Assembly (NCBI RefSeq): GCF_000027125.1
Contig: NC_017626.1
Length of the DNA: 64,000 nucleotides
From: Escherichia coli 042
Lineage (GTDB): Bacteria; Pseudomonadota; Gammaproteobacteria; Enterobacterales; Enterobacteriaceae
Reading direction: 5' to 3' (one strand)
The translations under genes were made by a program, and so were the position numbers. Below, piece after piece: positions 26,220 through 49,541 of this stretch; positions within the stretch are counted from its first letter, which is position 1, and each line of letters begins with the position of its first letter. Under the pieces are notes generated by a model. It was given only the letters and a program-made list of their open reading frames with translations. It ran no database searches and was not told the DNA's origin.

Positions 26220-26223
<4 letters not shown>

Positions 26224-28145
26224 TCATCCTCTCCGGATAAGGCACGGGCGTAATCTGCCAGTGTTTTCTTGTTGGTTGCTGCACCATCCTCTTCCTGCAG
26301 GCTCGCCAGCAGTGCACTGAGATCCAGCTGCCAGCGGGAAATACTGATGCGCAGCGCCGCCAGCGCATAAACGAAGCAGTCGAGCGCCTCATTGCGTCGC
26401 TTTTTGCTGTCCCACAGTATTTTTTTCCTGCCATCCACCCATTTTTCGACCTGCTCTTCAGCAGTCAGCTGCTGCGCTTCGGTCAGATCAAAAATATCCG
26501 GGTTATTCGGGAAGTGAACGGCACCGGGAAGCGGTTCATCCCCTTCCGGCGTCAGTGTGAAGCGGTTATAAATCTGCTCTTTCGCGGTATCCGTACCGAT
26601 TTCGGTAAGGTAAACCCCGTTTTTGTTTCGCTTACGAGGCATGCTGGCCACCGGCTTACCGTAGACGGATGCCCCTTTAATGGGGATCACCCGGAACAGC
26701 CCATGCTTTTTCGAGCGTTCATACACAATGGTCGGGTCAATCCCGCCAATATCCCAGCAGATACGGGATATCGACATTTCTGCACCATTCCGGCGGGTAT
26801 AGGTTTTATTGATGGCCTCATCCACACGCAGCAGCGTCTGTTCATCGTCGTGGCGGCCCATAATAATCTGCCGATCAATCAGCCAGCTTTCCTCACCCGG
26901 CCCCCATCCCCATACGCGCATTTCGTAGCGATCCAGCTGGGAGTCGATACCGGCGGTCAGGTAAGCCACACGGTCAGGAACGGGCGCTGAATAATGCTCT
27001 TTCCGCTCTGCCATCACTTCAGCATCCGGACGTTCGCCAATTTTCGCCTCCCACGTCTCACCGAGCGTGGTGTTTACGAAGGTTTTACGTTTTCCCGTAT
27101 CCCCTTTCGTTTTCATCCAGTCTTTGACAATCTGCACCCAGGTGGTGAACGGGCTGTACGCTGTCCAGATGTGAAAGGTCACACTGTCAGGTGGCTCAAT
27201 CTCTTCACCGGATGACGAAAACCAGAGAATGCCATCACGGGTCCAGATCCCGGTCTTTTCGCAGATATAACGGGCATCAGTAAAGTCCAGCTCCTGCTGG
27301 CGGATGACGCAGGCATTATGCTCGCAGAGATAAAACACGCTGGAGGGGTCATCCGGCGTCCATTTGAGGCCAAACGGCGTCTCTTTGTCGCCAAATTTAA
27401 GATACTGCTCCTCCCCGCAGTGCGGGCAGACAACATGAAAACGCATAAAATGCGGGGATTCACTGGCTGCACGCTCAATCTGGCAGGTGCCTCTCACTTT
27501 GGGCGTGGAGCCACGGATGGACTTTGGCCAGACCGAGCCTTCAATACGTTTGTCGCCAAGGAACGTCGGAGAGCCTTCCTGTTCAATATCCTCATCAAAG
27601 GCAGCAAGTTCATCATAACCCGCCACATCCACCGACTTTTCACGGTAGTTTTTTGCCGCTTTACCGCCCAGGCACCAGAAGCCACGACCATTGGTAAAAC
27701 GCTTCATGGTGAGCGTGTTATCCCGGTGCTTTTTGCCATACCACGGTGCCAGCGCCAGCAGCGACGGAATATCACGGATAGTCGGCTCAACGTGGGTTTT
27801 CATAAAGTTCTCGGCATCACCATCCGTCGGCAACCAGATAAGGGTGTTGCGCTGCTTATGCTCTATGAAGTAGGCATAAACACCCAACAGCATTTTGGAA
27901 TAACCGACACGGGCAGACTTCACCACATTCACCTCACGGATGTAGTCGCTGCCCATCGCATTCATGATGGCCCGCTGAAAGGGCAGTGTTTCCCAGCGCC
28001 CTTCCTGGTATGCGGATTCTTTCGGGAGATAGTAATTGGCATCCGCCCATTCAACGGCGGTCTGTGGCTCCGGCCTGAACAGTGAGCGAAGCCCGGCGCG
28101 GACAAAATGCCGCAGCCTGTTAACCTGACTGTTCGATATATTCAC
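26220..28145 (-). CDS. A: terminase large subunit A
   Basis: 641 aa, same length as lambda gpA. Confidence 0.95.
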
Positions 28146-28665
28146 TCAGCAACCCCGGTATCAGTTCATCCAGCGCGGCTGCTTTGTTCATGGCTTTGAT
28201 GATATCCCGTTTCAGGAAATCAACATGTCGGTTTTCCAGTTCCGGAAAACGCCGCTGCACCGACAGGGGGATCCCGTCGAGAATACTGGCAATTTCACCT
28301 GCGATCCGCGACAGCACGAAAGTACAGAATGCGGTTTCCACCACTTCAGCGGAGTCTCTGGCATTTTTCAGCTCCTGTGCGTCGGCCTGCGCACGCGTAA
28401 GTCGATGGCGTTCGTACTCAATAGTTCCTGGCTGGAGATCTGCCTCGCTGGCCTGCCGCAGTTCTTCAACCTCCCGGCGCAGCTTTTCGTTCTCAATTTC
28501 AGCATCCCTTTCGGCATACCATTTTATGACGGCGGCAGAGTCATAAAGCACCTCATTACCCTTGCCACCGCCTCGCAGAACGGGCATTCCCTGTTCCTGC
28601 CAGTTCTGAATGGTACGGATACTCGCACCGAAAATGTCAGCCAGCTGCTTTTTGTTGACTTCCAT
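28120..28665 (-). CDS. nu1: terminase small subunit Nu1
   Basis: 181 aa MEVNKKQLADIFGASIRTIQNWQEQGMPV... as in lambda Nu1. Confidence 0.9.
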   Translation of the reverse strand: MEVNKKQLADIFGASIRTIQNWQEQGMPVLRGGGKGNEVLYDSAAVIKWYAERDAEIENEKLRREVEELRQASEADLQPGTIEYERHRLTRAQADAQELKNARDSAEVVETAFCTFVLSRIAGEIASILDGIPLSVQRRFPELENRHVDFLKRDIIKAMNKAAALDELIPGLLSEYIEQSG

Positions 28666-28669
28666 TGTT

Positions 28670-28900
28670 CATTCCACGGACAAAAACAGAGAAAGGAAAC
28701 GACAGAGGCCAAAAAGCTCGCTTTCAGCACCTGTCGTTTCCTTTCTTTTCAGAGGGTATTTTAAATAAAAACATTAAGTTATGACGAAGAAGAACGGAAA
28801 CGCCTTAAACCGGAAAATTTTCATAAATAGCGAAAACCCGCGAGGTCGCCGCCCCGTAACCTGTCGGATCACCGGAAAGGACCCGTAAAGTGATAATGAT
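28670..28900 (-). other. cos region; cosN 12-nt cohesive end at 28843..28854
   Basis: Reverse complement of 28661..28854 matches the lambda left end (GGGCGGCGACCTCGCGGGTTTTCGCTATTTATGAAAATTTTCCGG...) as I remember it, directly upstream of nu1. Confidence 0.8.
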
Positions 28901-29053
28901 TATCATCTACATATCACAACGTGCGTGGAGGCCATCAAACCACGTCAAATAATCAATTATGACGCAGGTATCGTATTAATTGATCTGCATCAACTTAACG
29001 TAAAAACAACTTCAGACAATACAAATCAGCGACACTGAATACGGGGCAACCTC

Positions 29054-29287
29054 ATGTCAACGAAGAACAGAACCCGCAGAACAACAACCCGCAACATCCG
29101 CTTTCCTAACCAAATGATTGAACAAATTAACATCGCTCTTGAGCAAAAAGGGTCCGGGAATTTCTCAGCCTGGGTCATTGAAGCCTGCCGCCGGAGACTG
29201 TGCTCAGAAAAAAGAGTTTCTTCTGAAGCAAACAAAGAAAAGAGTGACATTACTGAATTGCTCAGAAAACAGGTCAGACCAGATTGA
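29054..29287 (+). CDS. hypothetical 77-aa protein, possible ribbon-helix-helix DNA-binding fold
   Basis: ORF with basic N-terminus (MSTKNRTRRTTTRNIRFPNQMIEQINIALEQKGSG...) about 200 bp beyond cos. Confidence 0.4.
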   Translation: MSTKNRTRRTTTRNIRFPNQMIEQINIALEQKGSGNFSAWVIEACRRRLCSEKRVSSEANKEKSDITELLRKQVRPD

Positions 29288-29344
29288 AGCAATTTAGATA
29301 ATCGTGCAGACTACGCCCCCTCATATCACATGGAAGGTTTATCT

Positions 29345-29755
29345 ATGGATCAGGTAGTCATTTTTAAACAAATATTTGATAAAGTTCGAAACGATTTAAA
29401 CTATCAATGGTTTTATTCTGAGCTAAAACGTCACAATGTCTCACATTACATTTACTATTTAGCCACAGAGAATGTTCATATTGTATTAAAAAATGATAAT
29501 ACAGTGTTATTAAAGGGCCTAAAAAACATTGTGTCTGTCAAATTTTCAAAGGATAGGCATCTTATAGAAACGACCTCTAATAAGCTGAAATCCAGAGAGA
29601 TCACATTTCAGGAATACAGAAGAAACCTTGCTAAAGCAGGAGTTTTTCGGTGGGTTACAAATATCCACGAACAAAAAAGATATTACTATACCTTTGATAA
29701 TTCATTACTATTTACTGAAAGCATCCAGAAAACTACACAGATCTTACCACGCTAA
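29345..29755 (+). CDS. ydfO: DUF1398-family prophage protein YdfO
   Basis: ORF 29330..29755; start chosen at [11 protein letters not shown]... for ~136 aa; synteny with Qin ydfO-gnsB. Confidence 0.7.
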
Positions 29756-29906
29756 ACCATAACGTCCGGCTTCTCTCACTCCTGAGCCGGACTGCATTGG
29801 TTTAATAAAAACCATCAACAATTGTGATTTAGATATTCGGAACCATTCAAATATAACAAAACCCCGTAAAAACGAGGTTTATGGATAAATTTTATTATTG
29901 AATACA

Positions 29907-47069: not shown

Positions 47070-49541
47070 ATGAGTAAAGTCTTTATTTGCGCCGCTATTC
47101 CTGACGAACTGGCAACAAGGGAAGAAGGCGCTGTGGCTGTAGCCACAGCCATTGAAGCTGGCGACGAACGCCGTGCTCGAGCAAAATTTCACTGGCAATT
47201 CCTGGAACATTATCCGGCTGCTCAGGACTGCGCTTATAAATTTATTGTCTGCGAGGATAAACCTGGCATACCCCGCCCTGCCCTCGATTCATGGGATGCT
47301 GAATATATGCAGGAAAACCGCTGGGATGAGGAGTCTGCTTCTTTTGTCCCGGTTGAGACTGAATCCGATCCGATGAACGTCACTTTTGACAAGCTGGCCC
47401 CTGAAGTACAGAACGCTGTCATGGTTAAGTTCGACACATGTGAAAACATCACCGTTGATATGGTTATTAGCGCACAGGAATTGTTGCAGGAAGACATGGC
47501 AACATTCGACGGACATATCGTTGAAGCGTTGATGAAAATGCCAGAAGTTAACGCCATGTATCCGGAGCTTAAGTTGCACGCCATTGGGTGGGTTAAGCAT
47601 AAATGTATTCCTGGTGCTAAATGGCCCGAAATTCAGGCAGAGATGCGCATCTGGAAAAAACGTCGCGAAGGTGAACGCAAGGAAACCGGAAAATACACGT
47701 CTGTTGTTGATCTCGCCCGCGCCAGAGCCAATCAACAGTACACTGAAAATTCAACAGGAAAAATCAGCCCGGTCATTGCTGCCATTCATCGCGAATACAA
47801 GCAGACATGGAAAACACTGGATGACGAACTGGCCTACGCTCTCTGGCCTAGTGATGTGGATGCCGGAAACATTGACGGCAGCATCCATCGCTGGGCAAAA
47901 AAAGAAGTTATCGACAACGACCGCGAAGACTGGAAGCGTATCTCGGCATCAATGCGCAAACAGCCTGATGCCCTTCGCTACGACCGCCAAACTATTTTTG
48001 GCCTTGTCCGTGAGCGTCCGATCGACATTCACAAAGATCCCGTAGCACTGAACAAATATATCTGCGAATACCTGACGACAAAGGGCGTGTTTGAGAATGA
48101 AGAAACAGACCTGGGCACTGTTGATGTTCTCCAGTCATCAGAAACACAAACTGATGCAGTGGAAACTGAGGTATCTGATATCCCAAAAAATGAAACCGCG
48201 CCGGAAGCTGAACCATCTGTAGAGCGTGAGGGGCCGTTCTATTTCCTCTTCGCAGATAAGGACGGAGAAAAATACGGTCGCGCAAACAAACTCTCTGGTC
48301 TGGATAAGGCACTGGCTGCTGGCGCCACTGAAATCACAAAAGAAGAATATTTTGCCCGAAAAAATGGCACATACACGGGCTTACCGCAAAATGTAGATAC
48401 CGCTGAAGATTCAGAACAACCAGAGCCGATAAAAGTTACCGCTGACGAAGTAAACAAAATTATGCAGGCAGCCAATATCAGCCAGCCTGACGCCGATAAG
48501 TTGCTTGCTGCATCACGTGGTGAATTTGTTGAAGGGATTAGTGACCCGAATGATCCGAAATGGGTTAAGGGGCTCCAGACCCGCGATTCTGTGAACCAGA
48601 ACCAGCATGAATCGGAACGGAACTACCAAAAAGCGGAACAAAACAGTCCAAATGCGTTACAAAACGAGCCAGAAACGAAACAGCCTGAACCAGTAGCGCA
48701 ACAGGAAGTGGAAAAAGTCTGCACCGCCTGCGGTCAGACCGGCGGCGGCAACTGCCCTGATTGTGGCGCGGTGATGGGCGACGCAACATACCAAGAAACA
48801 TTCGATGAAGAGTATCAGGTTGAAGTTCAGGAAGATGATCCGGAGGAAATGGAAGGCGCTGAACATCCACACAAGGAGAACACTGGCGGCAATCAGCATC
48901 ACAATAGCGATAATGAAACTGGCGAGACGGCAGATCACCCAATTAAGGTGAACGGTCATCACGAAATCACATCCACCAGCAGGACGTGTGACCATCTAAT
49001 GATCGACCTTGAAACCATGGGAAAAAATCCTGATGCCCCGATCATCTCAATAGGTGCAATATTTTTCGATCCGCAAACCGGAGATATGGGACCGGAATTT
49101 AGTAAGACTATCGATCTGGAAACTGCTGGCGGAGTCATTGATCGGGACACCATTAAATGGTGGCTTAAGCAATTACGCGAAGCGCAATCTGCCATTATGA
49201 CCGATGAAATCCCGTTAGATGATGCACTGTTACAATTGCGAGAATTTATCGACGAAAACTCCGGTGAATTTTTTGTTCAGGTTTGGGGAAATGGAGCCAA
49301 CTTCGACAACACGATTTTGCGCCGTTCATACGAACGGCAGGGGATCCCCTGCCCGTGGCGTTACTACAACGATCGCGATGTACGCACAATCGTTGAGCTG
49401 GGGAAAGCCATAGACTTCGATGCCAGAACGGCTATTCCATTCGAAGGTGAGCGCCATAATGCACTTGATGACGCCCGTTACCAGGCAAAATACGTTTCAG
49501 TTATCTGGCAAAAACTGATCCCGAGTCAGGCTGATTCTTAA
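47070..49541 (+). CDS. ydfE: YdfE-family prophage protein, full length, with central zinc ribbon and C-terminal DEDDh (DnaQ-like) 3'-5' exonuclease domain
   Basis: ORF 47034..49541; start chosen at MSKVFICAAIPDELATRE...; CxxC...CxxC (CTACGQTGGGNCPDCG); exonuclease motifs DLETMG, GANFDNTIL, HNALDDARYQA. Confidence 0.8.
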   Translation: MSKVFICAAIPDELATREEGAVAVATAIEAGDERRARAKFHWQFLEHYPAAQDCAYKFIVCEDKPGIPRPALDSWDAEYMQENRWDEESASFVPVETESDPMNVTFDKLAPEVQNAVMVKFDTCENITVDMVISAQELLQEDMATFDGHIVEALMKMPEVNAMYPELKLHAIGWVKHKCIPGAKWPEIQAEMRIWKKRREGERKETGKYTSVVDLARARANQQYTENSTGKISPVIAAIHREYKQTWKTLDDELAYALWPSDVDAGNIDGSIHRWAKKEVIDNDREDWKRISASMRKQPDALRYDRQTIFGLVRERPIDIHKDPVALNKYICEYLTTKGVFENEETDLGTVDVLQSSETQTDAVETEVSDIPKNETAPEAEPSVEREGPFYFLFADKDGEKYGRANKLSGLDKALAAGATEITKEEYFARKNGTYTGLPQNVDTAEDSEQPEPIKVTADEVNKIMQAANISQPDADKLLAASRGEFVEGISDPNDPKWVKGLQTRDSVNQNQHESERNYQKAEQNSPNALQNEPETKQPEPVAQQEVEKVCTACGQTGGGNCPDCGAVMGDATYQETFDEEYQVEVQEDDPEEMEGAEHPHKENTGGNQHHNSDNETGETADHPIKVNGHHEITSTSRTCDHLMIDLETMGKNPDAPIISIGAIFFDPQTGDMGPEFSKTIDLETAGGVIDRDTIKWWLKQLREAQSAIMTDEIPLDDALLQLREFIDENSGEFFVQVWGNGANFDNTILRRSYERQGIPCPWRYYNDRDVRTIVELGKAIDFDARTAIPFEGERHNALDDARYQAKYVSVIWQKLIPSQADS

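Follow-up and report, generated by a model that had tools for sequence, protein, structure and literature searches.

A prophage gene beside cos in Escherichia coli 042: ynfO and its predicted ribbon-helix-helix domain

What does the small open reading frame (ORF) just beyond the cohesive-end site of a Qin-like prophage encode, and is it a gene at all? We addressed this question in a stretch of 64,000 nt from Escherichia coli 042 (NCBI RefSeq assembly GCF_000027125.1, contig NC_017626.1), referred to here as the window, whose positions are used throughout. A first-pass annotation of the window had singled out a 77-residue ORF near cos, with a basic N-terminal strand followed by helical segments, as resembling ribbon-helix-helix (RHH) DNA-binding proteins. 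The ORF next to cos is ynfO, an already annotated and uncharacterised prophage gene. Sequence comparison indicates that it is a real gene under strong purifying selection, and modelling supports an RHH fold for its conserved domain. The reading that we favour, and hold with moderate confidence, is that ynfO, placed like a moron gene, encodes a small transcriptional regulator of the RHH type.

Identity of ynfO and selection on its first 47 codons

In the ORF list, ynfO occupies 29054..29287 on the + strand, running from an ATG start to a TGA stop and encoding the 77-residue protein MSTKNRTRRTTTRNIRFPNQMIEQINIALEQKGSGNFSAWVIEACRRRLCSEKRVSSEANKEKSDITELLRKQVRPD. The reverse complement of the lambda cohesive end GGGCGGCGACCT, that is, AGGTCGCCGCCC, is found outside the gene at 28843..28854, and the lambda right end aligns from 28855; the ynfO ATG therefore lies 200 bp beyond cosN. 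On the other side of cosN are nu1 (28120..28665, − strand; Pfam Phage_Nu1, E 9e-101) and the large terminase gene A (26220..28145, − strand). The position first given for the ORF, about 200 bp from cosN and opposite nu1, is thus exact, and its sequence is as originally quoted.

The window protein matches YnfO from Qin, a prophage of K-12, at every residue (100% identity; RefSeq WP_001368374.1, 'ynfO: YlcI/YnfO family protein'), so that within the family of K-12 YnfO (Qin) and YlcI (DLP12) it shows no difference from the former. The whole ynfO-ydfO DNA segment is also 100% identical to Qin, and the neighbours ydfO (DUF1398), gnsB and cspI match Qin as well. The two prophages differ in that K-12 Qin is a remnant, in which nohA is followed by truncated tail genes, whereas the Qin-like prophage of the window is more complete and retains its terminase and portal genes intact. 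DNA resembling ynfO-ydfO was found in 4697 of 5426 complete E. coli genomes, and the annotation of ynfO is present in thousands of E. coli genomes. The gene is listed with the uncharacterised genes of the y-ome, and no work on the function of ynfO, ylcI or DUF3950 came up in full-text literature searches. Its identity is directly supported by profile matches to Pfam DUF3950 (PF13132; E=2.7e-21, 75.6 bits, cut-off 25), to NCBIfam NF041551 (YlcI_YnfO_N; 36.6 bits, cut-off 30) and to PHROG 949, a group without assigned function (E 6e-34). The core motif of the YlcI/YnfO family, x-I-R-F ... N-F-S-x-W-V-x-x-A-C, is complete in the window protein, and residues I15, R16, F17, N36, F37, S38, W40, V41, A44 and C45 are invariant or at least 90% conserved in two family alignments.

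It had also been suggested that the ORF might equal an unnamed ORF at the right end of lambda. Lambda (J02459) does carry a homologue at complement(48109..48303), unannotated in that record, whose first 49 residues are identical to those of the window protein, and between the cos end and about codon 47 a single synonymous change distinguishes the two DNAs. The equivalence ends there, as the lambda product has 64 residues and a different C-terminal tail. Several other lambda-like records annotate the ORF, either as hypothetical or as a YlcI/YnfO family protein. The lambda 'orf-64' of PMC10695390 was considered as this gene and rejected, being a different ORF located between Q and S; the CRISPR interference data of that study are consequently uninformative on the ynfO homologue.

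The near-identity with lambda of the segment that runs from cos into the ORF could also be explained if the ORF were non-functional and its conservation came from cis-acting DNA beside cos. The lack of a clear promoter and the weak ribosome-binding site in the window, as well as the missing annotation in lambda J02459, would fit such an explanation. Comparison with Pankowvirus-type Shiga toxin (Stx) phages speaks against it. In these phages, DNA homology to the window covers exactly 29054..29194 (84-87% identity), beginning at the ATG and stopping near codon 47; the DNA next to cos is not shared. Over these 47 codons, comparison with phages 2851, WGPS4 and 569R3 by the Nei-Gojobori method gave synonymous divergence (dS) of 0.67-1.41, nonsynonymous divergence (dN) of 0.04-0.05 and dN/dS of 0.03-0.07, that is, 4-5 amino-acid changes despite near-saturated synonymous divergence. 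Moreover, homology starts precisely at the ATG, before which the Stx-phage homologues carry a strong GAGGA ribosome-binding site. Conservation extends far beyond this prophage, as the first-pass annotation required of its proposal, with homologues in Stx phages and satellites, and across Enterobacterales, Orbales and Pasteurella, in unrelated DNA contexts. We rejected the cis-acting-DNA explanation on the dN/dS values and consider it extremely improbable; the same comparisons directly support that ynfO is coding and selected.

Conservation stops at about codon 47, and after residue 49 the tails of the proteins from the window, lambda, phage 2851 and phage 569R3 are mutually unrelated; selection thus acts on a domain of about 48 residues. 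On the + strand of the window, the conserved module (codons 1-47, 29054..29194), the predicted RHH domain, is the sole part shared with the Stx-phage homologues, and the variable C-terminal tail comprises residues 50-77 (29201..29284). The phage 2851 copy combines a strong ribosome-binding site with a downstream hairpin followed by a T-run. In Stx2 phage 1717 (locus L171, 1501-1659), the DUF3950 gene is frameshifted after about residue 29 and is a pseudogene copy.

The predicted ribbon-helix-helix domain

To place the conserved residues in a structure, the YnfO monomer was modelled with AlphaFold2 as a single chain from a 21-sequence alignment. The mean predicted local distance difference test score (pLDDT) was 70.6, with about 80 in the core (78-84); this model supersedes a poor one obtained from the lone sequence (pLDDT 57). 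In order, it shows an extended segment at residues 14-18, helix A at 19-32, a GSGN loop, and helix B from residue 37 into the tail, which is the RHH succession of strand, helix A, tight loop and helix B. In the window (+ strand), the predicted β-strand of the ribbon, NIRFP, corresponds to 29093..29107 and contains the invariant or nearly invariant I15, R16 and F17; helix A corresponds to 29108..29149, and the start of helix B (residues 37-50), with its nearly invariant NFSAWV motif, to 29162..29203. Before them lies a basic N-terminal arm, residues 1-13 (MSTKNRTRRTTTR; 29054..29092), with six K/R in 13 residues; its pLDDT is low, and the models show it without regular structure. The ribbon strand is unpaired in the model, as expected of a monomer.

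Foldseek comparison of the model with the PDB returned mostly RHH proteins: Arc, NikR, CopG, MazE N-domains, ParD, KacA, TacA, NikA, YiiF and HicB. These matches superimpose with a root-mean-square deviation of about 2 Å over 36-43 columns, at E-values of 0.9-6, which are weak because the motif has only 40 residues. The model is thus similar in three dimensions to solved RHH proteins. At the profile level, 10 of the 21 family members matched a HicB-like PHROG (best E 8e-5), an Arc-like repressor PHROG was matched at E 7e-4, and hhalign placed RTTTRNIRFPNQMIEQINIALEQKG onto KMPQFNLRWPREVLDLVRKVAEENG of Arc (E 0.0018, probability 15%), with NIRFP in register with the Arc strand. The RHH resemblance noticed at first is borne out by the strand-helix-helix model, the Foldseek list and the HicB- and Arc-like PHROG matches, which give direct support to an RHH-like fold of the ynfO domain.

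Among known systems, Arc and Mnt of phage P22 are close in kind: they too are small phage proteins with a strand-helix-helix arrangement and a basic N-terminal arm. NIRFP stands in register with Arc NLRWP, and Arc structures are among the best Foldseek matches. YnfO differs from them in that it has no significant profile match to Pfam Arc/RHH and no operator was found for it, and in that ynfO lies in the late region beside the packaging genes, not in immI. RHH domains fold only as intertwined dimers. Most likely YnfO would do the same, and the two-stranded ribbon of such a dimer would read the DNA major groove; by analogy with the arms of Arc and MetJ, its N-terminal arm may contact the DNA backbone. 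We infer that the window copy dimerises and binds DNA, and YnfO most likely regulates transcription in a sequence-specific manner, probably as a repressor. Annotating the product as an RHH protein is sensible for what is a known y-gene, ordinary for this window, and it gives ynfO, its paralogue ylcI and the unannotated lambda ORF a predicted role as small DNA-binding regulators.

A different role for an RHH domain would be that of an antitoxin. YnfO would then form a type II pair with YdfO (DUF1398) as toxin, the RHH domain autoregulating the pair and the tail neutralising the toxin. YnfO differs from ParD, KacA, TacA and the HicB C-terminal domain, however, in having no conserved toxin partner or C-terminal region: the tail that should bind the toxin is unrelated among the window, lambda and phages 2851 and 569R3. 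Only the Qin, lambda and DLP12 types show DUF1398 linkage; the Stx-phage and satellite homologues have no DUF1398 neighbour, and in lambda about 560 bp with an opposite-strand ybcW-like ORF separate the 64-residue ORF from the DUF1398 gene. Furthermore, YdfO overexpression protected against oxidative stress, and no toxicity was reported (PMC4077768). The toxin-antitoxin pairing, which we find very improbable, was rejected on context and on the non-conservation of the tail.

Homologues in phages and satellites

The family is small: only 120 clusters were found among 1.8 billion representative proteins, many of them consisting of error-ridden lambda reads. When one genome from each species was scanned, 75 loci were obtained, the genuine ones all in Enterobacterales or Orbales, and tblastn added a Pasteurella satellite. 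Near-identical lambda/Qin sequence also occurs in assemblies labelled Nanosynbacter, Collinsella, Colwellia, Algoriphagus, Paenibacillus, Thiomicrorhabdus, Staphylococcus and spider (loci L093, L096, L098-L100, L102 and L103), and in many error-ridden ENA contigs of about 3.5 kb. Such copies are most likely lambda control DNA or contamination and not from real hosts.

Three contexts can be distinguished. In lambdoid prophages, the DUF3950 gene has the lysis cassette on one side and the packaging genes on the other and lies antisense to the late operon, and this conserved position is directly supported by two unrelated packaging modules: the slot is kept with lambda Nu1/A, as in the window, and with an HNH-Terminase_2-TerL module, where the DUF3950 ATG lies 41 bp from the HNH start. 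Such a slot is the usual place of lysogen-expressed 'moron' genes, accessory genes within the late region (PMC7067206). Like lambda bor and lom, ynfO is antisense or autonomous in the late operon; it occupies the Rz-cos slot, beside bor in lambda, near AT-rich cargo. It differs from them in that bor and lom encode envelope proteins and have defined promoters, whereas the ynfO product is predicted to bind DNA, and the scans upstream of the gene revealed no convincing promoter.

The same position is open to a second explanation, in which YnfO is an accessory of packaging that binds near cosQ/cosN or an equivalent site and modulates terminase or protects or marks the DNA end. The lambda end beside this ORF is the one that enters the cell first. 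In favour of this explanation, the ATG is 200 bp from cosN, the segment from cos to codon 47 is near-identical in lambda, homologues stand directly before the packaging module in two unrelated terminase systems, and a satellite DUF3950 domain (P0208) is fused to a TerS-type DNA-binding domain. However, phi80, N15 and mEp237 share the cos segment and have no DNA-level ORF homologue beside it, whereas the Stx phages share the ORF without the cos DNA, so the distribution indicates that linkage of the DUF3950 gene to lambda-type cos is not obligatory. Moreover, ynfO is antisense to the late operon that encodes the packaging proteins, most family members are in satellites, far from their terS, and short cos fragments suffice for lambda packaging. 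We regard a packaging role as quite improbable.

Satellites are the second context. At least 36 of the 64 divergent loci are satellite-like islands, in which the order is integrase, AlpA, sometimes AntA or Bro, the DUF3950 gene, an icd-like/primase operon and capsid genes. Here the DUF3950 gene is usually the lone opposite-strand gene or one of few; in L091, two more co-oriented genes follow it. Homologues of this kind lie in L083 (5440-6420), L087 (5790-6190) and L091 (5790-6340), and in many of the loci L107-L167. A search for lambda cosN beside satellite DUF3950 genes found none. The satellite homologues, and only these, resemble the Stl/Rpr regulators of Gram-positive islands in having a divergent regulator gene at the boundary between integrase and replication/packaging genes, with intergenic operator-like arrays. 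They differ in that fold and sequence are unrelated to Stl/Rpr, that the window gene itself is in a prophage, and that the satellite repressor role is a predicted one.

The operator-like sites of these relatives bear on the function of the domain. In 16 satellite loci of an 'IRFED' subfamily, two 12-bp sites (TGGTnnnnACCA) lie exactly at −12 and −45 from the ATG, around a TATAAT-like hexamer. The four bases at the centre of the sites form four classes that correspond one-to-one with the three residues before IRF: KKN occurs with ACGT, ACAT or ACAC, MKH with AGTT or AACT, SKI with ATAA, and RRT with TCGA or TCGC. According to hhalign, these three residues fall on positions of the Arc strand that contact bases. 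Members of a second subfamily, 'IRFPHELIEEI', carry 3-4 island-specific repeats at about −105, −82 and −35, which flank an apparent leftward TTGACG −35 element. The covariation of residues and sites argues for a sequence-specific repressor function in the DUF3950 family, and the satellite pattern is what one would expect if RHH repressors acted on their own operators at a divergent switch. The satellite homologues are candidate switch repressors of Gram-negative satellites. The wider value of the analysis would lie in this family survey, outside the window, where most of the divergent homologues lie at the regulatory boundary of satellites with operator-like arrays that covary with the DNA-reading residues.

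These satellite relatives raise the possibility that the phage-borne copies cross-talk with satellites through operator competition or mixed dimers, acting as an inducer or as an anti-satellite factor. The divergent homologues in integrase-AlpA-primase-capsid islands stand at the position expected of a switch regulator, and searches next to the phage copies yielded no cognate operator. Mixed phage-satellite dimers are conceivable, given that RHH domains fold only as intertwined dimers. In addition, the repressor and the helper-encoded inducer of Gram-negative phage-inducible chromosomal islands (PICIs) have been reported as unknown (PMC6092414). Against cross-talk, the argument is purely inferential, phage and satellite proteins are only 35-50% identical with no common operator found, and phage copies are carried by cryptic prophages, too, where no satellite is seen; we judge it decidedly unlikely. 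A broader proposal is that DUF3950 proteins are switch repressors of Gram-negative satellites (PICIs, capsid-forming PICIs and P4-like elements) with island-specific operators, and that the lambda, Qin, DLP12 and Stx copies, including ynfO, are helper-side players in a phage-satellite conflict by either of the two routes just named. This, too, we consider unlikely.

Several further features were noted in the satellites. In the L083 island, a 60-residue DUF3950 gene is accompanied by the operator-like sites TGGTACGTACCA. The satellite proteins P0208 (L083, 6001-6363), P0190 and P0234-P0238 have 120-129 residues and consist of an N-terminal DNA-binding domain of the TerS type, lacking the oligomerisation core, fused to a DUF3950 RHH domain; in P0208 the TerS-type part matches Pfam Terminase_2 and PDB 2cmp (E 1.6e-4). 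Genes for P0208-type fusions are preceded by 3-4 GTTTAACAC repeats, and the fusions could act on a packaging site. In two islands the satellite integrase abuts a prophage late gene, namely a 61-residue terS fragment in L083 (6641-8881) and a lambda-type portal gene in L091 (9257-12195), an arrangement consistent with 'helper-embedded satellites' (PMC10111431). In the Pasteurella satellite Pmp7 (L172, 4435-5109) and in L089 (5616-6446), a long opposite-strand ORF is annotated over the DUF3950 ORF, labelled 'transcriptional repressor' in Pmp7. This annotation is likely a mis-call, and as a consequence the small RHH gene is missing from the annotations of both.

The third context is that of chromosomal orphans, some of them next to an ORF of about 60 residues with two transmembrane segments. 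In Salmonella and Citrobacter (L104, 5995-6387; L127, 6001-6393), for instance, the DUF3950 gene is followed by an ORF of this size with two hydrophobic segments, and the pair may be a small two-gene module.

The flanks of ynfO and the adjoining ydfO

If ynfO encodes a regulator, the question is what it acts upon. A number of results weigh against such a role. Each structural match is weak on its own; among the 21 family members no Pfam RHH family was matched above noise (RHH_6 reached E 0.09 in 1 of 21), and neither the single protein nor two family profiles had a significant PDB sequence match. The intertwined ribbon dimer is proposed by analogy from a modelled monomer. The covariation comes from relatives only 35-50% identical, and the inference drawn from it is weakened because gene and sites are physically linked there. 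In the 200 bp from cos to the ATG, the best sigma-70 match scored 8/12 and a second scan found none, and the Shine-Dalgarno sequence of the window gene is weak. Finally, no operator-like repeat is common to the lambda/Qin-type and Stx-type flanks, despite nearly identical DNA-reading residues; the 8-9-mers that they share are at chance level only.

The regulator reading offers two candidate targets for YnfO, one on either side of the gene. Upstream, the sole operator candidate is an imperfect inverted repeat, ATCAATTATGACG / CGTATTAATTGAT, at 28952..28984, about 100 to 70 bp before the ATG. It is identical in lambda, it is not shared with the Stx-phage loci, and it does not stand out by its conservation among 54 distinct lambda-like upstream sequences. 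Sites like TGGTnnnnACCA or of the form GTGT...ACAC were not found near the window ynfO. A perfect 15-bp palindrome, TGATAATGATTATCA, lies closer to cos, at 28891-28905, about 40 bp from cosN; it is Fur-box-like and identical in lambda.

Downstream, the other candidate is a palindrome in front of ydfO. The co-oriented ydfO (DUF1398; 29330..29755, + strand, RefSeq start 29345) is in the same reading frame as ynfO. The palindrome, AGGTCAGACCAG, lies at the 3′ end of ynfO (29271..29282) and occurs nowhere else in the window in exact form. A GATAAT hexamer follows 17 bp downstream of it (29271-29305 for the whole arrangement), and the ydfO start comes about 65 bp after the palindrome. Probably this stretch is the ydfO promoter region, and AGGTCAGACCAG is a possible control site of that putative promoter. 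The same sequence has been reported as an in-vitro PdhR site by systematic evolution of ligands by exponential enrichment (PMC7660256). An arrangement of GGTCAGACC and GATAAT also precedes the lambda DUF1398 gene, and GGTCAGACC does not recur in the Stx-phage loci.

Under the regulator reading, ynfO would head a two-gene unit with the AT-rich, stress-regulated ydfO. The GC content is 42-47% in ynfO, 31-35% in ydfO and 52-58% in the terminase genes. Directly past the ydfO stop, a hairpin, GTCCGGCT...AGCCGGAC (29764..29792, + strand), was read from the sequence, absent from a strict terminator scan, and is a possible end of the ynfO-ydfO transcription unit. In K-12, ydfO is strongly and conditionally regulated (PMC4077768), and transcription of ylcI, the paralogue in DLP12, is reported (PMC12288877), so the locus is active.

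Between ynfO and ydfO (29285-29344), a single TGA separates the two genes in one frame, with no further stop, an arrangement with a chance of about 1 in 6. The database cluster P0240 (233 residues, 761 members) is a ynfO-ydfO read-through in which this TGA is translated as W, probably a gene-calling artefact.
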